A stretch of DNA of 52,275 nucleotides from the NCBI GenBank assembly GCA_045586225.1, contig JAZMZX010000127.1, positions 1 through 52,275 of the forward strand, in the 5' to 3' direction. Origin of the DNA: Eubacteriales bacterium (GTDB taxonomy: Bacteria; Bacillota; Clostridia; Oscillospirales; CAG-272). Of this stretch, positions 3,930 to 39,940 are shown piece after piece. Each line of letters opens with the position of its first letter. Position 1 is the stretch's first letter. Position numbers and translations under genes: made by a program. The notes beneath the pieces are model-generated. The model made no database searches, was not told the DNA's origin, and saw nothing but the letters and a program-made list of their open reading frames with translations.

Positions 3930-4003
3930 CGGGGTGTGGCTCAGTTCGGTAGAGCGCTTGGTTCGGGACCAAGAGGTCGCACGTTCAAATCGTGTCACTC
4001 CGA
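3930..4003 (+). tRNA. tRNA-Pro (anticodon CGG), CCA not encoded
   Basis: Hand-folded cloverleaf. Acceptor cggggtg pairs with cactccg. D stem gctc/gagc. Anticodon stem cttgg/ccaag with loop ttCGGga (CGG at 3964-3966). T stem gcacg/cgtgt with loop ttcaaat. Discriminator A. Confidence 0.93.
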
Positions 4004-6875: not shown

Positions 6876-8111
6876 ATGGAAATTAAGCCTTTAGAGAAAA
6901 AAGTGTGGCTTTCTTCGCCCACAATGCACGGCGAAGAGCTTATGTACGTGAAAGAAGCATACGAAACCAACTGGATGTCCACGGTTGGCAAGAATATTAA
7001 CGAGGTTGAGCGCATGGCGGCAGAGAAGATAGGCTGCAAATATGCAGTTGCTCTTTCCGCAGGCACCGCAGCCCTTCATATGGCTGTGAAGCTCGCGGGC
7101 GTGAAGCCCGGCGACCGCGTGTTCTCCTCGGATATGACCTTTGCGGCAACGGTGAACCCCGTTCTGTACGAGGGCGGCGTGCCCGTTTTCATCGACAGTG
7201 AAAGAGATACCTGGAATATGGACCCTGAGGCTCTGAAGCTGGCCTTTGAGCTTTATCCCGACGTTAAGGTCGTTGTCGTTGCAAACCTTTACGGCGTTCC
7301 CGCAAAGCTTGACGAGATCCGTGCCATCTGTGACGAGCACGGTGCTGTCCTCATTGAGGACGCGGCAGAATCCATGGGCGCCACCTATAAGGGCGTTGAA
7401 ACGGGCACCTTCGGTACCTATAACGCCATCTCCTTCAACGGAAACAAGATCATCACCGGTTCTTCCGGCGGTATGCTTCTCACCGACAGTCTTGAGGCTG
7501 CAAATAAGGTGCGCAAGTGGTCCACGCAGAGCCGTGAAAACGCTCCCTGGTATCAGCACGAGGAGGTTGGCTACAACTATCGCATGAGCAACGTTATCGC
7601 AGGCGTTGTAAGAGGTCAGTTCCCCCATCTTGATGAGCACATCGCTCAGAAAAAGGCTATATATATGCGATATAAGGAAGCCCTCAGCGACCTTCCCGTT
7701 TCCCTTAACCCCTACGATGAGAGCATCATGGAGCCGAACTTCTGGCTTTCCTGCCTCCTGATCGATGAGGAGGCTATGTGCCGTCAGGTCCGCGATGACA
7801 GCGAGGCTCTTTACGTTAAGGAGCCCGGAAAAACGTGCCCCACGGAGATCCTCGAGAAGATCGCCGCTGTGAACGCAGAGGGCCGCCCCATCTGGAAGCC
7901 TATGCACATGCAGCCTATCTACCGCATGAACGGATACGTTACCGTGGACGGAAACGGACGCGGCAGAACGAACGCATACATCAACGAGGGCAAGACGAGC
8001 GACGTCGGCGCGGATATTTTCCACCGCGGACTCTGCCTGCCCAGCGACAATAAAATGACTCCCGAGGAGCAGGACGTTATCATTGCGGCTATCAGAAGCT
8101 GCTTTGAGTGA
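6876..8111 (+). CDS. DegT/DnrJ/EryC1/StrS-family PLP-dependent sugar aminotransferase (EpsN/PglE-like)
   Basis: WLSSPTMHGEELMYVKEAYETNW, ALSAGTAALHMA and the PLP-Lys context AISFNGNKIITGSSGGMLL. Its length and architecture are typical of nucleotide-sugar 4-aminotransferases. Confidence 0.85.
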   Translation: MEIKPLEKKVWLSSPTMHGEELMYVKEAYETNWMSTVGKNINEVERMAAEKIGCKYAVALSAGTAALHMAVKLAGVKPGDRVFSSDMTFAATVNPVLYEGGVPVFIDSERDTWNMDPEALKLAFELYPDVKVVVVANLYGVPAKLDEIRAICDEHGAVLIEDAAESMGATYKGVETGTFGTYNAISFNGNKIITGSSGGMLLTDSLEAANKVRKWSTQSRENAPWYQHEEVGYNYRMSNVIAGVVRGQFPHLDEHIAQKKAIYMRYKEALSDLPVSLNPYDESIMEPNFWLSCLLIDEEAMCRQVRDDSEALYVKEPGKTCPTEILEKIAAVNAEGRPIWKPMHMQPIYRMNGYVTVDGNGRGRTNAYINEGKTSDVGADIFHRGLCLPSDNKMTPEEQDVIIAAIRSCFE

Positions 8112-8163
8112 TAAGCTCCGGCGGCGAGCGAACATTTCGTGAACGAATATTTCGGAGGATAAT

Positions 8164-8835
8164 ATGGAATCCAATAAGCGCAAAGGCTCCCGCGGCATCT
8201 ACGCCCGCTTTTTTAAGAGACTTTTTGATATAATACTTTCCGCAACGGTGCTTCTCACCTTCAGCTGGCTTTATCTCATTCTTATGATAATCGTCCGCAT
8301 CAAGATGGGCTCTCCCGTGTTCTACGGCTCCTTCCGCATCGGAAAGGACGAAAAGCCCTATAAGAATTATAAATTCAGAAGCATGACAAACGAGACCGAC
8401 GAAAACGGCGTGCTTCTTCCTTCCGCAAAGAGACTGACCAAATTCGGCAGACTCCTTCGCAGCACCAGCCTGGATGAGATACCCGCTATCTGGAACATTC
8501 TTAAGGGCGACCTGAGCTTCGTAGGCCCCCGTCCCATGCCCACAAAATACCTGCCTTATTTCCGCGAGGAAGAGCGCGCACGCCACGATATCCGTCCCGG
8601 TCTCACAGGCTGGGCGCAGGTAAACGGCAGAAACGCTATCTCCTGGGACGATAAGTTCAAGTATGACGTTGAATACGTTGAAAACGTGTCCCTTTTGTTT
8701 GATATCAAGGTCCTTTGCCTGACGGTAGTCAAGGTGCTCAAGCGCAGCGATATCATTCAGGACGACCAGCAGACGGCAAGCTTACATATCGTGAGAGCTG
8801 ATATGGTGAAAAACGAGGAAGAGGCGAAGGGCTGA
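8164..8835 (+). CDS. Small monotopic phosphoglycosyl (undecaprenyl-phosphate sugar) transferase, PglC/EpsL/WbaP-C-terminal type
   Basis: FKRLFDIILS...LILMIIVRIKMGSPVFY, YKFRSM and LDEIPAIWNILKGDLSFVGPRP are the hallmark bacterial sugar transferase motifs. Confidence 0.88.
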   Translation: MESNKRKGSRGIYARFFKRLFDIILSATVLLTFSWLYLILMIIVRIKMGSPVFYGSFRIGKDEKPYKNYKFRSMTNETDENGVLLPSAKRLTKFGRLLRSTSLDEIPAIWNILKGDLSFVGPRPMPTKYLPYFREEERARHDIRPGLTGWAQVNGRNAISWDDKFKYDVEYVENVSLLFDIKVLCLTVVKVLKRSDIIQDDQQTASLHIVRADMVKNEEEAKG

Positions 8836-8915
8836 TACCGGCCATAGGTGCCGCTGCGCACCGTTATCGCGGGGGAAGGATACCCCCGACAAAGACTGCC
8901 TTTTCAGAGGTTTAT

Positions 8916-9974
8916 ATGACACCCAGCGAAAAAGAGAAAAAAGAAATAGGAAGTGAATACTGGCTCACGGACAGCACCGAAGAGAGAGCCCCTGTTTGGG
9001 AGCGCTTTTCGGATGGGGAGCTTTTCGCCGAAAAGGAGTTTTACGTTTCCGGACGCTCCGCCCTTCACGGCATCATTTCCGATGTAAAAAAGGAGAGGGA
9101 ATGCAGGACCGCTTATCTGCCGTCCTACTGCTGCGATTCCATGGTGGCGCCCTTTCTTGACCACGGCATGACCGTGGAATTCTACAGCGTTATTCCCGAC
9201 AGCGGGATATGTTCGGTGATAGACGAACGTAAAAAATGCGACGTCGTGCTCACCGTTGACTATTTCGGATACGGCAGCGAAAGGTGCCCTCTGCCCGAGG
9301 CGGTCCACATACACGACGTGACCCATTCGCTTTTGTCCGGCTCTTGCCGCAACGACGCAGATTATATTTTCGGCAGTCTTCGAAAATGGGGAGCCGTTGC
9401 GGGAGCGGGCTTTGCCGCGAAGAGAAAGGGAAGCTTCCTCGTGCATCCCGAAAGAGGAGAGCACAGGGCGTTTCTTGAGCTTCGCCGCCGCGGCTACAGC
9501 CTGAAGGCTGATTACATCCTTAAGGGAGAGGGCGAGAAGTCTCCTTTCCTCGACGCTTTTTCAAGTGCGGAGGAGCTTTTGGATGAAGATTACGCAGGAT
9601 ACGCAGCCGACGCCGATTCGCTTCTGCAGGCGGAGGAGATCGGTGCCTGTGCCGAAAAAAGAAGAGAAAACGCAAAAAGACTGCTGGCGGCTCTTGGGAA
9701 TCTCCGATGTGTCACTCCCATATACGGGGAGGTGGGCGAGGAGTGCGTGCCTCTTTTCGTGCCCGTGCTTGTGAAGGACGGAAAAAGAGACGCGCTGCGG
9801 TCGTTCCTTATCAAAAACCGCGTGTACTGTCCCGTTCATTGGCCGCGCCACAGCGGGCTTGGCGGCGAGCTTTACGAAAATGAGCTGTCCCTTATCTGCG
9901 ACCAGCGCTACGGACCCGACGATATGGACAGGACTGCGGAGCTGATCACCGAATTTGAGGAAAGGTTTTGTTAA
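8916..9974 (+). CDS. Divergent DegT-like PLP-fold enzyme (second aminotransferase/dehydratase-like protein)
   Basis: GRSALHGIISD..., AYLPSYCCDSMVAPFLDHGMTVEFY and a candidate Schiff-base Lys in IFGSLRKWGAVAGAGF parallel the layout of the 6876 gene. Similarity is weak, so function is uncertain. Confidence 0.5.
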   Translation: MTPSEKEKKEIGSEYWLTDSTEERAPVWERFSDGELFAEKEFYVSGRSALHGIISDVKKERECRTAYLPSYCCDSMVAPFLDHGMTVEFYSVIPDSGICSVIDERKKCDVVLTVDYFGYGSERCPLPEAVHIHDVTHSLLSGSCRNDADYIFGSLRKWGAVAGAGFAAKRKGSFLVHPERGEHRAFLELRRRGYSLKADYILKGEGEKSPFLDAFSSAEELLDEDYAGYAADADSLLQAEEIGACAEKRRENAKRLLAALGNLRCVTPIYGEVGEECVPLFVPVLVKDGKRDALRSFLIKNRVYCPVHWPRHSGLGGELYENELSLICDQRYGPDDMDRTAELITEFEERFC

Positions 9975-9980
9975 ACTGAA

Positions 9981-10988
9981 ATGAAAGAAGATATAAGAGC
10001 GCTTCCCGACGTTTATTTTGCCCGCGCATACTGCGAGCTTTATGAATCCATCGAGAAGGGCACTGTGAATAAATTTGAATATGCCGATGAAAACGGCGCG
10101 GCGTCGAACATTTTTATGAAGCGCCCCGTGCCTTACACCGTCGACGGAGAGCAGTATTACGATATCGTCACCCCCTACGGCTACGGCGGCCCCGTCGTTA
10201 CCGAGGCAAAGGACAAGGAAGCCCTGCTTGAGGGCTACTGGCGCGCATGGACAGAATACTGCGAAAAGGAAAGGATCGTTTGCGAGTTCGTTCGCTTCCA
10301 CCCCCTCCTTCGCAACGACGTTGATTTCGGCAGCCGCTACAATGCCGTTAAAAACCGCCACACCCTGGCTATCGAGCTGACGGAGGACTTTTTCGCAACG
10401 CAGTTTTCCTCCAAGTGCCGCAACACTATACGCAAGGCGGAAAAGCTCGGCGTTACTTACGAGATAGACGAGGCCTGCGATTCCATCGAGACCTTCGCGG
10501 AAATATATTACAAAACGATGGCGAAGGATAATGCCGACGATTATTATTTCTTCGCTCTCGACTATTTTCTCAAAATGAGAGAGGAGCTTGCGGGAAGCCT
10601 CGTGCTTATAAACGCAAAGCTTGAAGGGAAGACAATTGCTTCCTCCCTCTTTATGCTGTCGGAGGAGTTCATGCACTATCACCTTTCGGCAACAGACCCC
10701 GAATACTACACCTACGCCGCAAACAACCTTGTTTTGAAGGTGGCGGCTGAGTGGGGATGCACCCACGGCAAAAAGTGGCTTCACCTTGGCGGCGGACTTT
10801 CCTCAAGTGAGGAGGATTCGCTCTTCAAGTTCAAGCGCTCCTTCGCAAGAGAAGACAGAAATCTCAAGGAATTCTGGCTCGGCAAAGCCCTCTACAATAA
10901 GGAAGTATACGATAAGCTCGTAGACATCCGCCGCGCAGAAGGCAACTTCGACGAGGAATCCGGCTTTTTCCCTAAATACCGCATATAA
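9981..10988 (+). CDS. FemAB-like / GNAT-fold (Acetyltransf_6-type) aminoacyl- or acyl-transferase
   Basis: YYDIVTPYGYGGP, EFVRFHPLL, MHYHLSATDPEY and FKFKRSF resemble the FemX/FemAB/MurM-related proteins found in polysaccharide loci. Confidence 0.6.
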   Translation: MKEDIRALPDVYFARAYCELYESIEKGTVNKFEYADENGAASNIFMKRPVPYTVDGEQYYDIVTPYGYGGPVVTEAKDKEALLEGYWRAWTEYCEKERIVCEFVRFHPLLRNDVDFGSRYNAVKNRHTLAIELTEDFFATQFSSKCRNTIRKAEKLGVTYEIDEACDSIETFAEIYYKTMAKDNADDYYFFALDYFLKMREELAGSLVLINAKLEGKTIASSLFMLSEEFMHYHLSATDPEYYTYAANNLVLKVAAEWGCTHGKKWLHLGGGLSSSEEDSLFKFKRSFAREDRNLKEFWLGKALYNKEVYDKLVDIRRAEGNFDEESGFFPKYRI

Positions 10989-11020
10989 AAGTAACACACG
11001 TTAAAGGAGATAAGTTTTCT

Positions 11021-12295
11021 ATGTCAAAAGAGAAAAACTTGCCCGTAATATTGACTGACGACTCTCCGATCAAGATGCTTTTAGATAAGATTTTTGCTGC
11101 CATTCTGGCGCTTTGCCCCATCCTCCAGCATTATGACTGCATCATCAAGGATGCGGGAACGGTTTTCATGGCCGTTGCCTTCTGCTATTTTGGTATTCAA
11201 CTCCTGAGGGCAAAAAGGTGGCACTTCGGTATCGTGCTTCCGCTCGTGGCGATGAGCCTTTACGAAATAGTGAATCATGGAACGGGAGTTATGGAGATCG
11301 CCCGTGAAGCACTTCTTATCGGATATTTTGTTGCCGCTGCAAGCGGAGTCGTCAATTTCAAGTATTATGTGAAGGCTGCAACTTGCGTTGCCTTTTCCGC
11401 AGGCGCGCTTCTGGTGGTGCAGTACGTGTGCTACTACGCACTCGGATTCCATCTGCAGCTTGTGAACACCGCGTGGCTTGACAGCGGTGCAGAGCAGTGG
11501 GTGCTGCTTGCCGAAACGGGTCGCATCAGCGTGACTGGAAAGCCTATGAGCTTTTACAGACCCTCGGCCTTTTTCCTTGAGCCGTCTCACCTGACGCTTT
11601 ACACCTTCCCGCTGCTTGGACTGTCGGTCCTTTCCCCGAAAATGGACTTGAAGCGCATTATCGTCGCTTCCGTTCTTAGCCTCAGCATTATACTTTCAAC
11701 GTCCGGAATGGGAATTGCTATCGTGTTTGGCTTCTGGGGTCTTTACCTTGTGAGACATCTTATGGGAGACGGTGATCTCCGCCGGCGTATCAAAACCCTG
11801 TTCCGCCCGAAAAACCTTGTCTGGATATTTGGGCTGATCCTCATCTTCGGCGGGCTTTATGCATTCTTTGAGCCCTTCCGAATGAGCGTGAACCGTATCT
11901 TTTCCTCTGCAAACGGCAAAAATGCCATCGAGGGACGTATGGGCACGGGAATTTCCGCCATCAAATCGCTTTCAGGTGTGGAATTCTGGCTCGGCAAATC
12001 CGATTGGGGCAACGTACATAAGTGGAACATGGCAGGCTTCTTCTATACGTTCTACACTCAGGGCTTCATCGGTGTGCTCCTTTCCTTCGGATTCTACGTT
12101 TACACGCTTATCAAAACGAAGGATGCTTATTTCTGGCTGGCATTTATCGTTATAGGTCTTTCCCTGATCACTATCCACACGCATGCAGCATTTTATATGA
12201 TGTACTACGTGATGATCATGCTCGGCGGCCACGATCTGACGAAGGATAAGCTTTACATTCCGAATTTCTTCATCCGGAAGAAGGCGGATCAGTGA
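11021..12295 (+). CDS. Polytopic membrane protein, putative Wzy-type repeat-unit polymerase / O-antigen-ligase-like
   Basis: About 10-12 predicted TM segments, no soluble domain, and a position between modifying enzymes and the flippase. The assignment rests on context and topology only. Confidence 0.5.
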   Translation: MSKEKNLPVILTDDSPIKMLLDKIFAAILALCPILQHYDCIIKDAGTVFMAVAFCYFGIQLLRAKRWHFGIVLPLVAMSLYEIVNHGTGVMEIAREALLIGYFVAAASGVVNFKYYVKAATCVAFSAGALLVVQYVCYYALGFHLQLVNTAWLDSGAEQWVLLAETGRISVTGKPMSFYRPSAFFLEPSHLTLYTFPLLGLSVLSPKMDLKRIIVASVLSLSIILSTSGMGIAIVFGFWGLYLVRHLMGDGDLRRRIKTLFRPKNLVWIFGLILIFGGLYAFFEPFRMSVNRIFSSANGKNAIEGRMGTGISAIKSLSGVEFWLGKSDWGNVHKWNMAGFFYTFYTQGFIGVLLSFGFYVYTLIKTKDAYFWLAFIVIGLSLITIHTHAAFYMMYYVMIMLGGHDLTKDKLYIPNFFIRKKADQ

Positions 12296-12321
12296 CCGAC
12301 TTGCTTTCTTGAGGTATTATA

Positions 12322-13770
12322 ATGGATTCAAATCAGAAAAGAGGCAGCACGGGTCTTGCGCTGAAGGCGGGATTCTGGTACGTGGTCAGCAATTTCCTCG
12401 TGCGTGCCATGGGCTTTTTGACGACTCCCATATTCTCGCGCCTTATGAGCAAGGCGGATTACGGCGAGTTTTCAAACTATGCGAGCTGGCAGGCTATGCT
12501 TATCATCATAACCGGTGCCGAGCTTCACTCAACGCTCGCAAGAGCATATTACGATTTCAAGGAAGATTACGATAAATATATATCCACGGTAACAGCGGCA
12601 AGCTGCGGCATCACGTCGGTGGTATACATCTTCTTCCTGCTTTCGCGAGGCTGGATATACAGTATCGTTTCTATCCCCGAAAGATTCGTGCACGTTCTGT
12701 TTTTCACGCTTATGTTCCAGGCCTGCAAGTCAATTTATCTTGCAAGGGAAAGAACGTACTACAGATATAAGTCCGTTGCCGTTATTTCGGTGTTCAATCT
12801 TCTCATTCCCACGCTCATATCGGTTTTCCTCGTTATGTTCGTGGAGGAGACACAGAGGCTGGGAGCCCGTATATACGGCTTCTACCTTCCCTCAGCCGTT
12901 ATAGGACTTGGCTGCGCCCTGCTCATGCTGATGAGGGGCAGGTCATTTGAGCTGAAATACTGCAAATACGCATTCAGGCTTTCGATTCCCCTTCTGGTGC
13001 ACTATTTCACAGCGCACCTTCTCACCTCCACCAACACTATCGTGACAAAGAACGTGCTTGGCGCGGAAGCGGTTTCCGTTGTGAGCCTTGCCTCCAGCGC
13101 AAATCACATCCTCACGATACTTCTCACGTCTCTGTCCGGTGCTGTCACTACCTGGCTTATGGACAATATGGAGCAGGGAAACGTGAAGGCCACAAGACGC
13201 GGCACGCTTTTCTACGTTGGCGGCATATCTCTCGTTGCTGTGGGCGTTATCCTTCTTTCACCTGAGGTCGTGTGGATACTGGGCGGCAAGGCCTATGCAT
13301 CCTCAACGGCGCTTATGCCCGGAATGGTCGTGTCGGCGCTTATCCAGTCTGTGACGACCATATACACCATTATGCTGACATATCAGAAGAGAGTGGTAAA
13401 GACCGCGCTCTACACCACGGTGGTTGCTGTTATCTGTATTCTGGCAAAGGTCTTCCTGCTTCCCGTGTACGGTGTTATGGTGCTCCCCTTTATCAATATG
13501 GCATGCTTCGCCATCCTTTATTTCGTGAACTATATCCTTGTCCGCAGAAGCGGATGCGGAAAGTACGTGAACTTCAAGGGCATCACGGCGATACTGCTTA
13601 TCATCTGCTTCGTTATGGCGGGCAGCTATTATCTCTATGAGCATACCGTTATCAGGTATGCCGTTATCGCGGCTATGGCGGTGGTGGCGCTTACCATTAT
13701 GTATAAATACCGTGCCGTCATCATCAAGCTCGTTAAATCAAAATTCAAAAAGAAAAAAACTAACGTTTAA
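12322..13770 (+). CDS. Wzx-type oligosaccharide flippase (MOP/polysaccharide biosynthesis protein family)
   Basis: Typical N-terminus (AGFWYVVSNFLVRAMGFLTTPIFSRLMSKADYGEF), about 12-14 TMs and 482 aa. Confidence 0.8.
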   Translation: MDSNQKRGSTGLALKAGFWYVVSNFLVRAMGFLTTPIFSRLMSKADYGEFSNYASWQAMLIIITGAELHSTLARAYYDFKEDYDKYISTVTAASCGITSVVYIFFLLSRGWIYSIVSIPERFVHVLFFTLMFQACKSIYLARERTYYRYKSVAVISVFNLLIPTLISVFLVMFVEETQRLGARIYGFYLPSAVIGLGCALLMLMRGRSFELKYCKYAFRLSIPLLVHYFTAHLLTSTNTIVTKNVLGAEAVSVVSLASSANHILTILLTSLSGAVTTWLMDNMEQGNVKATRRGTLFYVGGISLVAVGVILLSPEVVWILGGKAYASSTALMPGMVVSALIQSVTTIYTIMLTYQKRVVKTALYTTVVAVICILAKVFLLPVYGVMVLPFINMACFAILYFVNYILVRRSGCGKYVNFKGITAILLIICFVMAGSYYLYEHTVIRYAVIAAMAVVALTIMYKYRAVIIKLVKSKFKKKKTNV

Positions 13771-31842: not shown

Positions 31843-31881
31843 AAAACAAAACCGATACGGTATTCCGTATCGGTTTTTTAT
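31843..31881. terminator. Bidirectional rho-independent terminator
   Basis: aaccgatacgg (31851-31861) pairs with ccgtatcggtt (31866-31876), flanked by an A-run and a T-run. Confidence 0.85.
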
Positions 31882-32180
31882 TTTTCGGGCACGTATCGGT
31901 ATTTGTCAAGGTCCACGGTGTAGCTGTTTACCTCCACTCCGTCGGCGAGAAGACGGCGCTTCTGCTCCTCGATGCCTCCGAATGCGTAGGCGCGGGAAAG
32001 CCTTCCGCGGCTGTTCACAACGCGGTAACAGGGGTATTTGTCGCCGTCGGGATTCACGTGCAGCACGTTGCCAACGGTGCGGGCGAGATTCTTGTTTCCC
32101 AGGTGAAGCGCGATGTCGCCGTAGGTGACGACCCGCCCACGCGGGATGGCCATCAGAAATTCGTATACCTGTTCCTTCAT
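31878..32180 (-). CDS. MGMT-family (methylated-DNA-protein-cysteine methyltransferase DNA-binding domain) protein
   Basis: ORF 31878..32408 trimmed to ATG 32180 (AAGGAG RBS). 100 aa. IPRGRVVTYGDIA...NLARTVGNVL...PCYRVVNSRG. Confidence 0.8.
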   Translation of the reverse strand: MKEQVYEFLMAIPRGRVVTYGDIALHLGNKNLARTVGNVLHVNPDGDKYPCYRVVNSRGRLSRAYAFGGIEEQKRRLLADGVEVNSYTVDLDKYRYVPEK

Positions 32181-32277
32181 TCTTTCGCTCCTTTTCGATA
32201 TCTCTTGTATTATACACCCTTGGCGGCAAAAATTCAACCCGGCATGTAAAAGGGATCCTTTCGGGTCCCTTTTTTGC

Positions 32278-34896
32278 TTACTGATTCGTGAGGCTTTCCT
32301 TGAAGGCGTTATATTCCTCAAGCGTTCCGCAATAGGTGAAGAACTGATGGGTGCCCATAAGATAATCGCCGCCGTTTTGCGTGAGCAGCTTATAATCTCT
32401 TCTGGCAATGTAGTTTTCCTCCGTCAGCTTCATTTCGTCGTAGCGCCAATGATTGCCAACGTGCAGGGGCATCATCTTATCGCCGCCGTCGATAACGGTG
32501 TACTCGGAAAGGACCGCGTCGGAATCAAGGTGCTTGCCCCAGGTGCATTTGTGGCGCACGATGCCGACACCGGGCGCAAACCAGTATTCCTTCTGCCCCG
32601 ACTCGGGGTTATTGTAAAAATAGTGGAAATAGTCGTCGTGGTTGCCCTCCACCTCGTAGTCGATAAGGAGATGGACGGTGTTTTCAAAGGTGCCTGCAGG
32701 GGTAACGACGGTGCCGCCGTCGGTGACGGTGTGCCGCATGGGCTGACCGTACAGCTCGCCCTCGTAGACGTAGCCCGGCTTCCATTCGTCCTTCCAAAGC
32801 GAGCCGCCAAGCCATTCAAGATAGGAGAATATCTTCACGCCGAAAATGCGGTTTTCTTCGCTTCTCGTGCCGAAGGGACCTGCGGAAAGCATCGGATATT
32901 CAGTTCCGTACAAAAGGAGCAAGCCGTCAGCCTCCTTGACGGTATCGGTGGCGATGCCCGTAGGACAAACGCGCCACTTCTCCTTTTGACATTCGATCCT
33001 CTCTTCAAGGACTTCAAGAAAGTAAAGGGCGGTGGCAACGTGGTTTGCACCGGAGGCGTTTTTGGCAATGGTGCGGAGCACGTCTGCCGCTTCCTCGAAT
33101 TTTTCAACCTCACAAAGCTCGCTTGCCTTGCGGAACAGAGTGGTGGGGGAGTCCGCGTCAACGTAGTCAGCTGCAAGGGCGGTGTAGTTCAGCGCCGAAA
33201 GGATAACGATCTCTTCGTCACCGACCTTTTCAAGATGCTCGATAACGTATTCGTTTCGCTCGAAAAGTCCCACGTGGCAGTCGGGCGTCACGTATGACCA
33301 GCTGTTGCCGAGAGCGATGGGGAGCCACCCCTCGCCTCCCTTTATTTCGTAGGCGGAAAGCACCTTTTCCTCTTCCTTGGTATAGGTCGTTTCCTTCACA
33401 AGGCCAACGCCGCGGCAGTACCATACGTGGCTGGAGTCTTCTCCATCCCGCGCAAGCTCAATGTGAAGGCAGTTTTCAAAGGTGCCCGCAGGGGTGACGA
33501 CAGTTTCGTCGGTTGCGATCACGCGGCGAATGCCGTCACCGCCGCGGCGGAGAGAGAGCTTTTCCTCGGCACCGGCCTCGATAGGCACGGAAGCGGGGAA
33601 GAAATTTGAGTCGAAAGCAGAGCTTGCCCTATGGAATATACAGTTCATGTAAGTGTCGAGCTCGCTGACTGCGTAATTGCAGCCCGGCTGAGATAAGTAG
33701 CGGAGATTGCCGTCCTTTTTTACCCAGCCCTCGCCCGTGACGAGGAGACACTTTTGCGCGTTATCGTCGAGGGCGCAGTCGATAGCCTTGAGCCCTGCCA
33801 AAACGGCACCGTAGGTTGCGGCGACATAGTCTCCCTTAAGACTTTTGCACTTTTCATATTCCGCCTTTGCAAGCGAAAGACACTCTTTTGTTGCCTCGGG
33901 GTTTTCCTTGATCCCCGTAAAGCTGAAGCTGTACGCCATCCAGAAATAGTGGCGTCCAAGCTCGGCGTGCTTTTCGTCGCTTTCGGGATAAGCGGAAAGC
34001 TCGGGGATGATGCGGTCACGGGTATAGTTATATCTGTTTTCGGGGGAATTCCACGCCCAGAACTTATCGCACATATCCATAAGCAGGTCGGATGCCTTCT
34101 TAACGTCGCCGAATTTGCGGTAAACGGCAAGCGCCTCCTCGCAATATTTCGTGTCAACGTCTGAGGCGATCTTTGCGCTTTTCACGGAATATTCCTTCAC
34201 GTCGTCGGAGCTTGAAAGATTCTGTATAAGCTCCTTCACGTTTTCATATGCCGAGTCAAAGCCAACGGTGCCGTATGTTTTCGTGTAGTTTTCAAGGTCG
34301 CGGATCTTGGTTGCCAGCGCTTCCGCAAAGGAATCGGGCAGGGTAGTTTTGTTTTCAGTCATTCTGATATCACCTCGCAGCTTTATTCTTGCGTCGTGTA
34401 TCCTGCGCTTAACGGTGCCGAGGGGCGCACCCGTGGCAGTTGATATCTCTGCCATGGAGAGTCCTTCGAGAAAATAAAGGACGGCAGTTTCCCTTACGGC
34501 GGGAGAAAGTGCGTCGAATCGTGCGTGAAGCTCCGTCATCGTTTCCTTTGCAACGAAAAGGGATTCGGGAGTCCGCTTGTCGGCGCGGCGCTCAAGGGTG
34601 TCGTAGGGCTCGGTCTTTCGTGTGCGCGCAAGTGCGTTCACGGTCTTATTGCGGAGGATCCTTGAAAGCCAGCCTTCGATCTTTTCGGGATCGCGAAGCT
34701 CGTATAAGTGCAGGTAGCCGTCGATGAAGGTCTCCTGAACGAGATCCTCTGCAACAGTTGCGTTTCCGCACAGTATCAAGGCGGTGCGGTACAGCCTTTG
34801 CATATACGCCGTAACGATAACGGTGTAGGCGTCGGGATTGCCGTGAAGTGTGCCTTCAATGGCAAGCGAAATTTTTTGAAGTTCGTGAGGCTCCAT
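32278..34896 (-). CDS. ECF-type sigma-70 factor fused to a ~700-aa non-membrane C-terminal extension
   Basis: Region 2 (AEDLVQETFIDGYLHL) and region 4.2 (LSMAEISTATGAPLGTVKRRIHDARIKLR) lie within aa 1-175. No hydrophobic TM follows. The extension contains an internal duplication (VVTPAGTFENCLHIE at aa 466-480 and VVTPAGTFENTVHLL at aa 729-743). AGGAGG RBS. Confidence 0.85.
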   Translation of the reverse strand: MEPHELQKISLAIEGTLHGNPDAYTVIVTAYMQRLYRTALILCGNATVAEDLVQETFIDGYLHLYELRDPEKIEGWLSRILRNKTVNALARTRKTEPYDTLERRADKRTPESLFVAKETMTELHARFDALSPAVRETAVLYFLEGLSMAEISTATGAPLGTVKRRIHDARIKLRGDIRMTENKTTLPDSFAEALATKIRDLENYTKTYGTVGFDSAYENVKELIQNLSSSDDVKEYSVKSAKIASDVDTKYCEEALAVYRKFGDVKKASDLLMDMCDKFWAWNSPENRYNYTRDRIIPELSAYPESDEKHAELGRHYFWMAYSFSFTGIKENPEATKECLSLAKAEYEKCKSLKGDYVAATYGAVLAGLKAIDCALDDNAQKCLLVTGEGWVKKDGNLRYLSQPGCNYAVSELDTYMNCIFHRASSAFDSNFFPASVPIEAGAEEKLSLRRGGDGIRRVIATDETVVTPAGTFENCLHIELARDGEDSSHVWYCRGVGLVKETTYTKEEEKVLSAYEIKGGEGWLPIALGNSWSYVTPDCHVGLFERNEYVIEHLEKVGDEEIVILSALNYTALAADYVDADSPTTLFRKASELCEVEKFEEAADVLRTIAKNASGANHVATALYFLEVLEERIECQKEKWRVCPTGIATDTVKEADGLLLLYGTEYPMLSAGPFGTRSEENRIFGVKIFSYLEWLGGSLWKDEWKPGYVYEGELYGQPMRHTVTDGGTVVTPAGTFENTVHLLIDYEVEGNHDDYFHYFYNNPESGQKEYWFAPGVGIVRHKCTWGKHLDSDAVLSEYTVIDGGDKMMPLHVGNHWRYDEMKLTEENYIARRDYKLLTQNGGDYLMGTHQFFTYCGTLEEYNAFKESLTNQ

Positions 34897-35021
34897 TCGG
34901 GTCCTCCTTTCTTTTGCGATAGTGAATCGGCCGATTCATATATTAAGACACGGAAAAAAGCCGAAAGGTTCGGTGAAAAAGCGAAATTTCAAAAAAAGTC
35001 CGATCGGGATCGGACTTTTTC

Positions 35022-35720
35022 TTATTTTTTTGCGATGAGGGCGTCGATATAGTCAAGGGCTTCGTCGATGGCGGGGAAGCTGCGGCTGACTTTTTCGGGA
35101 TACCTATAATTGATGCCGACGGAGATGCCTGCAACGCTGAACATAGGCCCGTCGTTTATGCCGTCGCCAACGGCTACGACTTCATCAGTGGAAATTGAAA
35201 GCATCCGGCAAAGCTCGGTGAGCCCTGCGCCCTTGTCGATTCCTACGGGTACGATATCGTAGCAGTCGCACTGAGGATATATCACCACGTCGCGGATCGA
35301 GTCCTCGTTTTCTCTGAGAAAATCGGCAATGGTGTCGGCATCTTCGTCAGAACTGAAAAAGGGGGTCAGTGCCACGCGGTTGGGCTGATACCAAAGGTGG
35401 GGGAGCTTTTCTTCAAGTCCGCGGCGCACAAAGGCGATGGTCTTTTTTGCCGCATCGCTGGAGGGAAGCGTCACGGACACCTTCGGCGGAAGTTCAACGC
35501 CGAATTCAATGGCAGCTCCGTTTTCGCCAATCAGGATAGTGTCGGGCAGCGCCGCCTGACGGCAAAGTCCGCAAAGATAGTAGGTGGGCTTGCCCGATGC
35601 AATGGCGATGCGTATGCCAGAGGCGGAAAGCAAACGCAAACGGGACGCGGTGCTTTCCGATATAGGCTTGCCGAGAGGGGCAAGGGTGCTGTCAAGGTCG
35701 AATACGATCAGTTTTATCAT
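35022..35720 (-). CDS. HAD-superfamily (Cof-type) phosphatase
   Basis: ORF trimmed to ATG 35720, which overlaps the upstream stop as ATGA. FDLDSTL (DxD), SGK and GDGINDGPMF motifs. Confidence 0.85.
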   Translation of the reverse strand: MIKLIVFDLDSTLAPLGKPISESTASRLRLLSASGIRIAIASGKPTYYLCGLCRQAALPDTILIGENGAAIEFGVELPPKVSVTLPSSDAAKKTIAFVRRGLEEKLPHLWYQPNRVALTPFFSSDEDADTIADFLRENEDSIRDVVIYPQCDCYDIVPVGIDKGAGLTELCRMLSISTDEVVAVGDGINDGPMFSVAGISVGINYRYPEKVSRSFPAIDEALDYIDALIAKK

Positions 35721-36598
35721 AGGTTTTTGCACGTGACGGTCCATGTGTTTTTGTATGTCTCGCCCGGGGCGAGGGCAATAAGGTCGGGCTTCTTTTCGAA
35801 AACGGTGACCTCTCCGTCGTGGGAGGGAAGGGAGCACCAGGGCTCGATACAAACGTAGGGGGCATCGGTGCGTGGCATATGCCATATGCCCAGATACTGC
35901 ATCCCGGGGAAGGAAACGGTGATGCTGTGCCCGTCGCCGTCTGCTTCAAGGGTCACACTGCGGTCCATATTGCGAAGGACGATGGCATCATCGTCGAAAA
36001 GGCTGTGGGAAAGGGGGAGGGTGTCACCGCCTTCAAGGGGGAAGGGGGTGAAGGTGCCGTCCGTGAAGCAGTCGGCGGTGAATCCCACTCTTTCGGGGGA
36101 GCACTTTTCAGAAAAACGGAGGCGGTAGCTGTCAAAGGTCTTGCCCTCCTTCAGGGGGACGTTGAAGCCGGGGTGTCCGCCAAGCCCGAAATACATTGCT
36201 TTGCCGTCGCGGTTTTCCACCTCATAGGTAACGGCGAGAGTGTCGCCGCAGAGCTCATAGCGCACGCGGAAGAGAAAATCCCGCGGGTATTCGGCGCGTG
36301 TGTCAGCATCGGAGGTGAGCACCAGCGAAAGGGACGAGTCCCCATGCATCTCCGTTTCAAAGCGGCGGTAAGGGGCGATGCCGTGTATCTTCATTTCGCA
36401 GGTCTCCCCGTCAAGGGAATACTTCCCGCCGAAAAGGCGGGCAACGAAGGGGAAGATATTGAGAGCGCGGTCGCTCCAATAGGCAGGGTCTCCCTGCCAC
36501 AGATATTCGGTGCCGTCGGCACCGAGTATGGAATAAAGCTCCGCTCCGTCCTCGGAAACGGTAACGGTGAGAAGCCGGTTTTTTATTGTTTTCAGCAT
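35717..36598 (-). CDS. Aldose 1-epimerase (galactose mutarotase-like) family protein
   Basis: ORF trimmed to ATG 36598 (AAGGAGAG RBS). LWQGDPAYW..RALNIFPFV.R, IHG and GGHPGFN are mutarotase-like fold motifs. Confidence 0.75.
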   Translation of the reverse strand: MLKTIKNRLLTVTVSEDGAELYSILGADGTEYLWQGDPAYWSDRALNIFPFVARLFGGKYSLDGETCEMKIHGIAPYRRFETEMHGDSSLSLVLTSDADTRAEYPRDFLFRVRYELCGDTLAVTYEVENRDGKAMYFGLGGHPGFNVPLKEGKTFDSYRLRFSEKCSPERVGFTADCFTDGTFTPFPLEGGDTLPLSHSLFDDDAIVLRNMDRSVTLEADGDGHSITVSFPGMQYLGIWHMPRTDAPYVCIEPWCSLPSHDGEVTVFEKKPDLIALAPGETYKNTWTVTCKNL

Positions 36599-36608
36599 TG
36601 TTCTCTCC

Positions 36609-37505
36609 TTAGTCGATGCTCTCGAAAAGAATTCCGTCGCGCTCGGTGAAGGATACTTCACCGATGACGACACGTCTGTTTCCGCTGGGCTTTTCGGGGT
36701 CTGTCTGCACGTGGAAGGACGTCATAAGCCTGCCGTCTGCGGCGCGGAAAAACGAGTTGTGGCCTGCGCCGAAAAGCTCACCGCGTGATCGGAGCACCGG
36801 GTTTGCCGCATCCTCCTTGGTGAAGGGACCGAAGGGAGAGTCGGCGGTGGCGATGCAGATGGAATAATCGTTTGAGGCATAAAAGTTGGCGGAATAGTTC
36901 ATCACTATCCGTCCGTCGCGCTCGATAAGGGTGGGACCCTCATTCCAGATGAAGTTTCCGTCAAGGGAAAGCAGCTCCCACGGACGGGTGGGTGTGGAAA
37001 TAAGAACGTGCTCTCCGACGGTGCGTGTCAGCGTTTCGTCGAGACGAACGCAGTAAAGCTGGCTCACGTGAATGCCTTCGATGACGTTTTCGCTGCAGTC
37101 GCGGGCATAGTAAAGGTAGTTTTCGCCTTTATAGGTGAGAAGGGAGCCGTCGATGGCGGCGTAGCCAAGATCGAACATGGGCTCGTTTTTCACGTCAACG
37201 AAGGGGCCGAGCGGCGAATCGCTGACGGCGACGCCAATGCGTAGGCTGCCGTTTTTCTTCATGCGTCCCGAATAGTGCATGATAAATCTTCCGCCGCAGC
37301 AAACGACCTCAGGCGCCCAGAAGCTGCCGCCGGCCCAGTGACCTTCGTCTGCGTAAAAGCAAAGACGGGGCTCGCTCCAGCTACATAGGTCACCGCTTTC
37401 CCAAACACGGAAGCCGCGCCCGTGGCTGGTGGCATAGCAGTAGTATCTTCCGCCGTGCAGGAGTATCTGCGGGTCTCCTATGCCGGTGATGTTCGTAACG
37501 GTCAT
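36609..37505 (-). CDS. Glycoside hydrolase family 43 (beta-xylosidase/alpha-L-arabinofuranosidase-like)
   Basis: GDPQILLHGGRYYCYAT (catalytic Asp region), FWAPEV and a five-bladed-propeller-size protein (298 aa). No signal peptide. Confidence 0.8.
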   Translation of the reverse strand: MTVTNITGIGDPQILLHGGRYYCYATSHGRGFRVWESGDLCSWSEPRLCFYADEGHWAGGSFWAPEVVCCGGRFIMHYSGRMKKNGSLRIGVAVSDSPLGPFVDVKNEPMFDLGYAAIDGSLLTYKGENYLYYARDCSENVIEGIHVSQLYCVRLDETLTRTVGEHVLISTPTRPWELLSLDGNFIWNEGPTLIERDGRIVMNYSANFYASNDYSICIATADSPFGPFTKEDAANPVLRSRGELFGAGHNSFFRAADGRLMTSFHVQTDPEKPSGNRRVVIGEVSFTERDGILFESID

Positions 37506-37526
37506 GATGTGATCCTCTTTTGGGCT

Positions 37527-38606
37527 TTATACAGTCACAATGTTGTCCGGGTCGCGGTCAAATGCGGAAAGCGCATCGTTATCGAAGGGGATCACGATTA
37601 TCTTGCTTCCGTGTTCGTCGCCGCCCAGATCATTTTCCTTTGGAACGTCGATGGCGGAAAGGGTGAGGGCGATAATGCGACCCTCCTCCATGTAAACGAA
37701 GGGGCGCTCAAGCTTGTTCCAGTGGTTCACGGTGCCGTCCCCGTAGCGGATGTAGTCGCCGTCGGGGGTGTAGGCGGCGCCCTTGTGCATGCGCCAGCCG
37801 TCGATGCCGTTGTCGCTTGTCATGTAGTATGCGCGTCTTTCATCCCAGCGGTTTGCGATGCAGTGGTAGCGTCCGTCGGAATACCACATAACGGGGTCTT
37901 CAACGTCGCGCTTGCCTGCAAGCCCGGGCATAATGCTCCAGAGATTCTCAACTCTCGTGTACCAGGGACCGCATATCTTTTTCGCGGTGGCGATGTCGCC
38001 GTGGCGGTTGTATGCGATGTAGCCTCCGCCGACGGCGGGAAGGATGCCCACGTTTGAGAGGCTGAAGGCACCGCGCGTGCCTTCGCCGGCCTCGATCTTC
38101 ATCTGTCCTGTGAACTGCCAGGGACCCGTGAGCTTTTCCGCAAGGAAAATGCCGCCCTTCAGCTCTTTCACAAAGGTGTCGCCGAGCACGAGACCGTATT
38201 TCATTTTCTTGCCGTCAAGATATTCGCCATCGTTCAGCACGAAGGGGAAAACGTTGTGGCCGTAGCCCTCGTGAAAGTCGGGATAAAGGAGCCCCTTGTC
38301 CTCGTAGGGGCCGTAAAGACTGTCGCTGACGGCCAGTATTGCCTTTGAGCGGGACCAGCCGCGGTGGCCTGCGCTTTCGTCCCAGCGGGAAGCAAACATG
38401 TAGAACTTGCCGTCTTCCTTGAAAACGGCGCCGTCCCAGTAGCAGTATCTTTCGCCTTCGGCGTCGGGACAGCCGATATAGCGGTCCTCAAGGCCGTTGT
38501 CAGGGTCACGCCTGCCAACAGTGGGAGCGCCCCAGCAATGGGAGGAAAGCTCACCTACGAGAGGGGTGGTCCTGAAGCAATCCATAAACTGTGTGATCTT
38601 TTTCAT
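37527..38606 (-). CDS. Putative beta-propeller glycoside hydrolase (GH43/GH117-like), family uncertain
   Basis: ORF trimmed to ATG 38606. Repeated W/Y-rich blades (YCYWDGAVFKEDGKFYMFASRWD, DPVMWYSDGRYHCIANRWD, RPFVYMEEGRIIALTLS). Adjacent to the GH43 gene. Confidence 0.45.
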   Translation of the reverse strand: MKKITQFMDCFRTTPLVGELSSHCWGAPTVGRRDPDNGLEDRYIGCPDAEGERYCYWDGAVFKEDGKFYMFASRWDESAGHRGWSRSKAILAVSDSLYGPYEDKGLLYPDFHEGYGHNVFPFVLNDGEYLDGKKMKYGLVLGDTFVKELKGGIFLAEKLTGPWQFTGQMKIEAGEGTRGAFSLSNVGILPAVGGGYIAYNRHGDIATAKKICGPWYTRVENLWSIMPGLAGKRDVEDPVMWYSDGRYHCIANRWDERRAYYMTSDNGIDGWRMHKGAAYTPDGDYIRYGDGTVNHWNKLERPFVYMEEGRIIALTLSAIDVPKENDLGGDEHGSKIIVIPFDNDALSAFDRDPDNIVTV

Positions 38607-38644
38607 GTCTTTTGTCCTTTCGTTTTTTGGCTTGTGTGACGTGC

Positions 38645-39940
38645 TTATTTTAACGATTCTTTTAACGTGAGCTTTGCGATGCACTCGCAGTGCCCCGTGC
38701 GGGGAAACATATCCACGGGGGTGACCCTTTCGATGGAGTATTTTTCCGAGAGCACCTTCAGGTCGCGCGCGAGGGTGGCAGGGTCGCAGGAAATGTAAAC
38801 GAGGCGCGGTGGCATTGTTTTTATAAGGTGTGCGATGAGCCTTTTATCGCAGCCCGCACGGGGCGGGTCCACGATAACGCAGTCTGCACCCGAATCGTAC
38901 GTGGCGGCATCGCCGCATACGAAATCGGCATCGATGCCGTTTGCCCTTGCGTTTTCCTTTGCATCCTCAATAGCGGACGCAACTATTTCTATTCCCGAAA
39001 GGGAAGCCTTGACTCTTGAATTTTTGATAACGGAAATTCCGATGGTGCCCGTGCCGCAGTAGAGGTCGGCAACGGTGTCCCCGTCCTTCAGCTCGGCATA
39101 GTCGCGGGCGAGGGTGTAGAGTATCTCGGCGCCGCCGTGATTCACCTGATAAAATGCATCCGGGGAAATGAGAAAATCACAGCCCGTAAGGCGGTCACGG
39201 ATGCGTTTGTCGCCCCAAACGAGAGTGTATCTGCCTCGGGGAGAGCCCTTTTTCTGAAGGCAAAAATAAACGCTTCCGATTTTGTCAAAGGTGCCCGTGA
39301 GTGCTTCTGCCGCCGCTGCCGCAAAGCCTTTGTCGTCCTCGGCATCCGACATGAATATCACCATCACGCCGTAGGTGGCGAGGCGGATGCAGAGATGGTG
39401 GAGCCCCGCGGGGCGAAGCTTCTTCGCAAGGCGGGAGACCTCTGAAATAATTTCGTTTGTCAGTTCATCGTGGAGCCTGCAGCGGAATTGAGGGATGATA
39501 TCGTGTGAGTTCTTTTTATAGTATCCAACGTCACCGTACCCGGAAACGGGCACCGTGACCTTCGTGCGCACCGCATCCTCGCCTGCCGAGCGTATGGGGC
39601 TTATCTCTGCCTTGAGCCCCGCGCGCCTGAAAAGAGACCTGACGTGCTCCTCCTTCACGGAAAGCTCATGCTCATAGGAAACGTGGCGGAAGGTGCAGCC
39701 TCCGCACTCCTCCGAAAATGCGGAGCAGTCCGGCGCGGTCCTGTGTGGGGAAGGGGAGATGAGCCTGCTTATACTGCAAAGACTGTAGGAAGCGAGCCTT
39801 TTTTCGAGCACGGCATCGCATACGTCGCCAAAGACGGCACCGTCAACGAAAACGGTGCGTCCGTCGCCGTCGCGGGCGACGCCCGCCCCGAGATTGGTGG
39901 TTTCCGTTATATTGATATCGTGTAAGATTATCTTGTCCAT
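38645..39940 (-). CDS. rlmD: 23S rRNA (uracil-C5)-methyltransferase, RumA/RlmD family
   Basis: N-terminal TRAM-like domain, Fe-S Cys cluster (C..F.EECGGCTFRH), SAM-MTase motifs (DLYCGTGTIG, DPPRAG, VYISCDPATLARD). Confidence 0.88.
   Translation of the reverse strand: MDKIILHDINITETTNLGAGVARDGDGRTVFVDGAVFGDVCDAVLEKRLASYSLCSISRLISPSPHRTAPDCSAFSEECGGCTFRHVSYEHELSVKEEHVRSLFRRAGLKAEISPIRSAGEDAVRTKVTVPVSGYGDVGYYKKNSHDIIPQFRCRLHDELTNEIISEVSRLAKKLRPAGLHHLCIRLATYGVMVIFMSDAEDDKGFAAAAAEALTGTFDKIGSVYFCLQKKGSPRGRYTLVWGDKRIRDRLTGCDFLISPDAFYQVNHGGAEILYTLARDYAELKDGDTVADLYCGTGTIGISVIKNSRVKASLSGIEIVASAIEDAKENARANGIDADFVCGDAATYDSGADCVIVDPPRAGCDKRLIAHLIKTMPPRLVYISCDPATLARDLKVLSEKYSIERVTPVDMFPRTGHCECIAKLTLKESLK

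Follow-up and report, generated by a model that had tools for sequence, protein, structure and literature searches.

A conserved family of ECF sigma factors with a ~700-residue cytoplasmic extension, and a candidate promoter of its own, in uncultured gut and rumen Clostridia

Introduction

Sigma factors of the extracytoplasmic function (ECF) type which have no anti-sigma factor but carry a conserved C-terminal extension are a recognised regulatory class (PMC7826278, PMC8999054). The published ECF classification, as its main text presents it, has 19 groups in which the core is followed by a C-terminal extension, of types that include SnoaL, TPR, Cys-rich, DUF1835 and multi-transmembrane (TM). 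The extensions of ECF48, ECF52 and ECF53 reach up to ~400 aa, and those of Planctomycetes ECFs are up to 10 times the size of the sigma factor (PMC8999054, PMC7671368). Here we describe an ECF sigma factor gene with a very long extension at positions 32278..34896 (minus strand) of a 52,275-nucleotide stretch of DNA from a Eubacteriales bacterium (hereafter, the window; contig JAZMZX010000127.1 of assembly GCA_045586225.1), together with the family of proteins to which it belongs.

We conclude that the protein probably represents a new one-component group among the ECF sigma factors, in which the extension replaces an anti-sigma factor and gates a sigma factor that is autoregulated. A preliminary description of the gene had held that known extensions are much shorter, a statement that the ECF48, ECF52, ECF53 and Planctomycetes proteins contradict (PMC8999054, PMC7671368); since these carry very long extensions, the length found here is not unprecedented.

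Results

A standard ECF core is fused to a soluble extension

The single fused reading frame proposed in the preliminary description holds, and encodes 872 aa made up of a sigma core and a 697-aa extension. The gene and its parts are as follows.

32278..34896, minus strand: whole gene, ECF sigma factor plus 697-aa extension (872 aa plus stop, ATG start)
34615..34815, minus strand: sigma region 2, aa 28-94 (Pfam PF04542, E 9.9e-11)
34375..34533, minus strand: sigma region 4.2, aa 122-174 (Pfam PF08281 and PF04545)
34333..34371, minus strand: flexible linker, aa 176-188 (low pLDDT, weak conservation)
33769..34332, minus strand: ten-helix TPR-like helical-repeat domain, aa 189-376 (AlphaFold2, Foldseek, Pfam)
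33175..33759, minus strand: beta module 1, DUF3108_like, aa 380-574, containing ETVVTPAGTFENCLH with an invariant Cys476 (Pfam, AlphaFold2)
32983..33147, minus strand: three-helix linker between the modules, aa 584-638 (AlphaFold2)
32332..32958, minus strand: beta module 2, a paralogue of module 1, aa 647-855 (self-BLAST, AlphaFold2, conservation)
32284..32322, minus strand: C-terminal helix, aa 859-871 (AlphaFold2)

Residues 1-175 form a standard ECF sigma factor with regions 2 and 4.2, as had been proposed, based on Pfam matches to Sigma70_r2, Sigma70_r4_2 (aa 122-173) and Sigma70_ECF (aa 8-176) and on the NCBIfam superfamily model TIGR02937 (sigma70-ECF; 67.3 bits, cut-off 42.9). Both sigma2 and sigma4 are present, as expected for a group 4 ECF, and no Pfam match to sigma region 3 was obtained in the 872-aa protein. 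No specific NCBIfam equivalog model scored above its cut-off for the sigma core. The closest solved core by sequence match to the PDB was that of Bacillus subtilis SigW (5wuq, E 2.2e-35). A search with the sigma domain alone retrieved just truncated family members (53-60% identity), followed by stand-alone ECFs at no more than 34% identity.

The extension has no TM segment, as the preliminary description had stated: no hydrophobic segment of TM grade was found in the 872-aa protein (Kyte-Doolittle 19-mer maximum 1.44), nor was a TM segment found in any of 41 homologues. The protein is soluble and cytoplasmic. Self-BLAST revealed an internal duplication between aa ~453-535 and ~717-819 (35% identity over 103 columns, E 5e-13), and the clear duplication is confined to the beta parts of the extension. 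The two module copies reported earlier are thus real and the first does begin at aa 466 (VVTPAGTFENC), while the second begins at aa 730 rather than 729, giving a spacing of 264 rather than 263 aa.

Structure models were made of the extension only, using AlphaFold2 with a 39-sequence alignment (mean pLDDT 88, pTM 0.73). The model has, in order, a linker of ~13 residues, 10 helices, beta module 1, 3 helices, beta module 2 and a C-terminal helix. A helical stretch had been described before each copy; the one before copy 1 is the 10-helix domain, and that before copy 2 amounts to merely 3 helices. Beta module 1 modelled alone reached a pLDDT of 93.3 and a pTM of 0.89.

Searches of the models against the PDB with Foldseek gave local matches of the helical domain to alpha-SNAP, the kinesin light chain TPR and RapI (probabilities 0.9-1.0), the sole local matches of high probability, and weak TPR Pfam matches were found in 5-7 of 37 aligned members. 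In this fold search, which had been proposed for the extension, neither the whole extension nor beta module 1 alone had a PDB structural neighbour at E<=1e-3. In identifying the fold we set aside the low-probability Foldseek matches to beta-barrels (porins, PR-10/Bet v 1, dirigent). The beta modules were recognised by Pfam instead: PF21347 (DUF3108_like) scored 36.0 bits against a gathering cut-off of 27, with model positions ~115-197 of 199 aligned, and was matched above the gathering score by all 37 aligned members, nine of which also matched DUF3108. A profile of the family matched PDB 3FZX, a "putative exported protein" (3fzx_A, E 3.4e-4, ~60 residues). The proposed sensor domain, left unnamed in the preliminary description, is thus partly nameable as a TPR-like helical repeat plus DUF3108_like beta modules. 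Among the 37 members no match was found to the SnoaL family, or to zf-HC2, RskA or any other anti-sigma-domain Pfam family, even at E<=1, and no match resembling a carbohydrate-binding module (CBM) or lectin was obtained with Pfam or Foldseek.

The fusion defines a family in gut and rumen Clostridia

A search using only the extension retrieved 41 proteins, nearly all of 850-885 aa with N-terminal sigma domains. One genome per species was then scanned, yielding 204 matching loci, of which 80 were examined; in ~70 of these a continuous single open reading frame (ORF) of 830-1140 aa aligned over its whole length, beginning with the sigma N-terminus. When representatives clustered at 50% identity were searched exhaustively with HMMER, 328 clusters matched at E<=1e-3 (58 at E<=1e-30). 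Most of the 328 were 830-900 aa long, with the extension match beginning at residue ~175-195. The hosts are almost all metagenome-assembled genomes (MAGs) of uncultured Clostridia from gut, rumen or faeces, labelled Oscillospiraceae, Ruminococcus, Eubacteriales, Acutalibacteraceae, Ca. Apopatosoma and Ca. Coliplasma. The closest relative (93% identity) is from a MAG labelled uncultured Lachnospiraceae.

Several MAGs have two or more paralogues. At locus L004 they lie in tandem at 8001-10559 (852 aa) and 10812-13376 (854 aa), each with its own promoter variant (scores 26.1 and 23.7 in the promoter scan described below), and in other two-copy MAGs the copies are on separate contigs (e.g., L017/L082, L036/L079 and L046/L081). 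A third beta module is present in members of 1044-1129 aa (P0099, P0101, P0116, P0121 and P0134) and at L063, L080 and L081; some of these longer three-module members have Pfam-recognisable TPR_1/TPR_12 repeats between the modules. Three distant relatives that are not sigma factors (P0133, P0163 and P0178; 768-1005 aa) have several DUF3108_like modules and N-terminal signal peptides, one together with fn3. Given these signal peptides, the DUF3108_like module is otherwise extracytoplasmic, serving in exported proteins, and is here found inside a cytoplasmic protein.

A few loci are broken. L059, L064 and L077 appear to be split by frameshifts. L052 (5774-6615) has a top-scoring family promoter, the start-site dyad described below and a ribosome-binding site, followed by ~40 codons of the sigma N-terminus and a stop, after which the last ~200 aa (beta module 2) are in a different frame. 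It was considered as a stand-alone beta-module gene behind a family promoter and rejected, being the remnant of an internal deletion or a pseudogene.

The extension is conserved and co-evolves with the sigma core

The beta modules are conserved to the same degree as sigma2 and sigma4. No 15-mer of the protein is more conserved than ETVVTPAGTFENCLH in beta module 1, where Cys476 is invariant, and the GTVKRRIHDARIKLR helix of sigma region 4.2 is also among the segments of highest conservation. Across 64 full-length members, the pairwise divergences of core and extension were strongly correlated (Mantel r 0.88; the maximum of 500 permutations was 0.13), which indicates one ancient fusion followed by co-inheritance. 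The extension type thus follows the core phylogeny, as it does in ECFs with a regulatory C-terminal extension, and a conserved extension of more than 50 aa is fused to the core throughout the group.

A putative family promoter lies almost exclusively upstream of the family genes

The regions upstream of the family genes were aligned on the homologous start codon, and a position weight matrix (PWM) was trained on them. A bipartite element, ACC(G/C)AACCTTT(T)-N11/12-G-n-(G/C)-T-C-T-(T/A)-(A/T), was found at rigid spacing in 63 of the 66 loci; its core form is ACC(G/C)AACCTTT-N12-GnGTCT. Sub-branches have the variants CGAACC...GTGTCT, CCAACC...CACTATA, CAAACC...GCACT and CCCAACC...GCACTTATAGG. 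Its geometry is that of a typical ECF promoter, whose -35 element contains AAC, whose -10 element is of the GTC/CGT type and which usually lies upstream of the sigma factor's own gene; it is also similar (AAC, 16 nt, G-T-rich -10) to the SigW promoter type, TGAAAC-N16-CGTA. The elements around the gene in the window are listed below.

34964..34974, minus strand: -35 element (ACCGAACCTTT) of the ECF-type promoter specific to the family
34942..34951, minus strand: -10 element GTGTCTTAAT of the same promoter, at rigid spacing from the -35 element
34923..34938, minus strand: 16-bp perfect dyad TGAATCGGCCGATTCA about the transcription start
34903..34910, minus strand: ribosome-binding site AAAGGAGG, 7 nt upstream of the ATG (34896)
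34991..35020, minus strand: terminator after the HAD gene (HAD end 35022), a hairpin with a 12-bp stem and a T-run
32247..32275, minus strand: putative terminator, a hairpin and T-run directly after the stop codon
32209-32237, minus strand: sigma70-like promoter TTGAAT-17-TATAAT of the MGMT-like gene (ATG 32180)

In the 52-kb window the PWM had a single match, at 34942-34974 on the minus strand, with a score of 31.0 (the maximum in 50 shuffled windows was 22.8). For the HAD, epimerase and GH43 genes (35000-38700) the scan of the window found no upstream family motif, nor was there one in the region upstream of 36609..38606 that the preliminary description had singled out for a promoter search. 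In 884 kb of loci, all PWM sites scoring >=17 were directly upstream of family members, with one exception (at L029). The motif thus stands almost exclusively before family genes, so that its specificity is high, which speaks for positive autoregulation. Scanning metagenome contigs with a strict form of the motif gave 12 matches, about as many as expected by chance, of which only two were self promoters. With a terminator on one side, a putative terminator on the other and separate promoters for the sigma gene and the MGMT-like gene, the sigma gene forms a monocistronic unit that is insulated from its two neighbours.

The exceptional site at L029 (8135, plus strand, score 18.8) lies just past the stop of the sigma gene, in front of a small membrane ORF (242 aa, weak NfeD_membrane match). 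It is the sole candidate regulon promoter that we saw.

A dyad is placed at about the transcription start

The dyad lies at a fixed position, its centre ~36-41 nt past the AAC of the -35 element. Perfect palindromes of >=8 bp were detected there in 62% of loci, while shuffles gave 6.5% and a control region gave 13%; for palindromes of >=10 bp the values were 40% and, in shuffles, 1.6%. L001, L007-L054 and others have the dyad at this position; the sub-branch of ~850-aa proteins has none. Its sequence varies by lineage, e.g., GAATCGGCCGATTC, ACTGCAGT, AACCATGGTT, TAATCGCGATTA and TGCAGCTGCA.

An RNA hairpin or leader at the dyad is not supported: the leader in the window folded no better than shuffles (z -0.65), the minimum free energy structure was without a palindrome hairpin, and no Rfam family was matched at the leader or dyad. 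Several of the palindromes are also too short for RNA hairpins. The dyad is more likely a DNA-level operator. The possibility that its half-sites are inverted copies of the -35 element (GAACC/GGTTC, as in L007) fails across the sub-branches.

The neighbouring genes are not conserved

As described earlier, the gene is flanked by a HAD phosphatase gene and an MGMT-family gene, with the GH43/mutarotase cluster upstream. The MGMT-family DNA_binding_1 protein is encoded downstream, and a HAD, an aldose epimerase, a GH43 and a weak GH43 gene upstream, all co-oriented with the sigma gene. We clustered the ORFs within +/-4 kb in 70 non-redundant loci, and no neighbour family was present in more than 12 of the 70, so there is no conserved adjacent anti-sigma factor, partner or link to glycan utilisation. 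Other loci have unrelated housekeeping contexts, e.g., an ABC transporter, dnaX/recR, rpoB/C and pheST. The preliminary description had noted no anti-sigma gene nearby and had raised the question of a conserved membrane partner elsewhere. Its observation is borne out in the window, and none is conserved in the +/-4 kb neighbourhoods of the 70 loci, in agreement with the lack of any anti-sigma Pfam family in the 37 members. The largest neighbour cluster, HTH-XRE, was rejected as a partner, as it reflects generic similarity in the helix-turn-helix region among proteins of 92-424 aa at varied positions.

At L003 (11539-13562) the next gene downstream of the fusion encodes a canonical short ECF sigma factor (187 aa), and after it comes one for a 487-aa protein with a single TM segment; the two resemble a classical sigma/anti-sigma pair, unrelated to the fusion. 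In the window, the MGMT-like gene (31878-32180, minus strand) encodes ~100 aa with DNA_binding_1 only. MGMT genes are conserved neighbours of the ECF122 group (PMC8999054). A link to ECF122 was rejected, as the MGMT-like gene is served by a separate promoter and is not a conserved neighbour of family members; the adjacency is probably coincidental. Upstream, a 385-aa ORF (37527-38684, minus strand) has a sub-threshold GH43 match (26.2 bits, cut-off 32.2) and adjoins the clear GH43 gene at 36609-37505; it may encode a divergent 5-bladed propeller glycosidase. The sole Rfam match at the gathering threshold in the window is a single tRNA gene (3930-4003, plus strand).

Discussion

The mechanism that we propose begins with a single ancient fusion, which would have joined the sigma2-sigma4 core to the ~700-aa cytoplasmic extension. 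The sigma factor would transcribe its own gene, and the extension, acting instead of an anti-sigma factor, would gate its activity in cis. The helical domain beside sigma4 would retain or free the core, by analogy with ECF41, ECF42 and ECF238. The beta modules would bind a signal in the cytoplasm, be it a small molecule or a protein. The constraint on the extension and its co-evolution with the core fit a cis-regulatory one-component sigma factor, and the one-component idea is plausible and indirectly supported.

Several points weigh against this interpretation. The autoregulation is deduced from the position of the motif, and as the PWM was trained on the same upstream regions, the self matches arise by construction; the independent evidence is the absence of other matches. 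No regulon member was found in the window, the 884 kb of loci or the metagenome-contig scans. There is no direct evidence for contacts of the extension with sigma2 or sigma4, the models being of the extension alone. No ligand, pocket or partner was identified, and the Foldseek searches of the PDB with both models found no structural neighbour with a known ligand. Lastly, the conservation of a dyad at the start site points to a further, trans-acting regulator outside the model.

A more specific version of the one-component mechanism can be put forward tentatively. The paired YmcC/DUF3108-like beta-barrels in the cytoplasm might bind an intracellular small molecule (e.g., a gut-derived lipid or metabolite) and switch the ECF core via the TPR-like domain, with the dyad as a second control layer, possibly bound by the inactive fusion protein or by a repressor. 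The paralogues with -35/-10 variants (CGAACC, CCAACC and CAAACC) would then be several insulated one-protein channels per genome. Such a new, ligand-gated sigma class seems to us rather unlikely.

Among the alternatives, control that depends on a partner protein, as in ECF42, survives best, and we consider it rather doubtful. The extension would be a protein-interaction platform needed for sigma activity and would answer a trans-acting protein encoded elsewhere. The similarity of the helical domain to TPR and helical-repeat adaptors in the Foldseek search is in line with this, as are the Pfam-recognisable TPRs of some relatives and the ECF42 precedent, where activity requires the TPR extension and this extension has been proposed to bind another protein (PMC8999054). 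However, the strongest conservation is in the beta modules and not in the TPR-like part, and there is no conserved neighbour that could be the partner.

The conserved dyad also raises the possibility that control is mainly transcriptional, with a dimeric repressor at the dyad setting expression, autoregulation amplifying it, and an extension that is non-regulatory and serves localisation, scaffolding or stability. In its favour are the enrichment of perfect palindromes at a fixed position, a leader RNA without significant structure and the lack of an Rfam match. The dyad sequence differs between species, however, and the sub-branch of ~850-aa proteins lacks the dyad and keeps the same extension; moreover, no conserved repressor gene is nearby, and the constraint on 700 aa that co-evolve with the core is hard to explain without a function linked to the sigma factor. 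We regard this explanation as improbable.

It is very improbable that the protein senses glycans and controls the adjacent GH43/mutarotase genes, a possibility raised in the preliminary description. The genes for the HAD, aldose epimerase and GH43 proteins are co-oriented with the sigma gene in the window, and an aldose epimerase and a HAD gene are also upstream in the closest relative, L001. The idea is nevertheless unsupported, because the sigma gene is monocistronic with a terminator between the HAD gene and its promoter, and the HAD and GH43 genes have no family promoter. The link to GH43/mutarotase genes is not conserved in the other species, with their unrelated housekeeping contexts, the protein is cytoplasmic and it has no CBM or lectin-like match. 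An assembly or frameshift artefact that falsely fused the sigma gene to an unrelated downstream gene, a concern of the preliminary description for which the unusual length and nothing further speaks, can be given practically no credence, since the fused ORF is continuous in ~70 independent species-level assemblies with identities down to ~24%, conservation continues across the sigma-extension junction, and core and extension co-evolve.

The one-component interpretation matters because ECFs with a built-in regulator are valued as minimal, orthogonal single-protein signalling units, both in studies of bacterial signalling and as parts for synthetic biology. The family adds an extension type made up of a TPR-like domain and two DUF3108-like beta modules, places the DUF3108-like domain where a binding or sensing role becomes testable, and comes with a clearly defined putative cognate promoter that is directly usable in reporter assays. 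Its hosts are abundant uncultured gut and rumen Clostridia, in which regulation is almost unexplored. The advance is incremental, as the concept is established by at least 19 ECF groups with extensions in the main text of the classification, unless the signal or the dyad mechanism proves unusual.

Compared with the known ECF groups as their main-text descriptions present them, the group appears set apart and previously undescribed; the main text of the classification contains no Firmicutes group whose extension combines a TPR-like part with DUF3108-like modules. ECF42, represented by Streptomyces venezuelae Sven_0747 and Pseudomonas putida ECF-10, is similar in having an ECF core with a soluble TPR-type extension, no anti-sigma factor and a presumed action in cis on the core (PMC8999054). 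Its extension is ~200 aa of TPRs only and its conserved neighbour has a YCII domain, whereas the present extension, of ~700 aa, continues past the helical domain into two DUF3108-like beta modules, the family has no conserved neighbour, and the hosts are gut Clostridia instead of Streptomyces and Pseudomonas.

The SnoaL-like groups (ECF41, ECF56, ECF294, ECF295 and ECF205; e.g., Mycobacterium tuberculosis SigJ) likewise have a compact, potentially ligand-binding C-terminal fold and no anti-sigma factor. In contrast to the SnoaL-like extension of ~100-150 aa in ECF41, the extension here is 5-7 times longer and without a SnoaL match, and the core is far from SigJ (5xe7, E 0.8) and close to SigW (E 2e-35). 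ECF48, ECF52 and ECF53 share a very long C-terminal extension on an ECF core, but theirs carries a ZAS zinc finger, an anti-sigma-type domain, plus 1-2 TM helices and these sigma factors are thought to be activated by proteolysis, while the present one has neither ZAS nor TM segments.

SigW (ECF30), the best PDB sequence match to the core, is a stand-alone protein of ~187 aa controlled by the membrane anti-sigma factor RsiW, and the identity of the family core to stand-alone ECFs is at most 34%. The beta modules resemble DUF3108 and DUF3108_like proteins, whose YmcC-fold beta-barrel is represented by 3FZX, in the Pfam and profile matches given above, in which the alignment is confined to ~60-80 C-terminal positions of Pfam model and PDB chain; 3FZX was not among the top 50 Foldseek matches listed for beta module 1, and no full-length match to its fold was found. 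DUF3108 proteins are outer-membrane or exported beta-barrels with the YmcC fold (PMC4364669), whereas the modules here are cytoplasmic, have no signal peptide or TM segment and follow an N-terminal sigma domain to which they are fused. Finally, the long extensions of Planctomycetes ECFs are heterogeneous, fortuitous captures (PMC7671368), whereas the present family has one conserved extension that co-evolves with its core.

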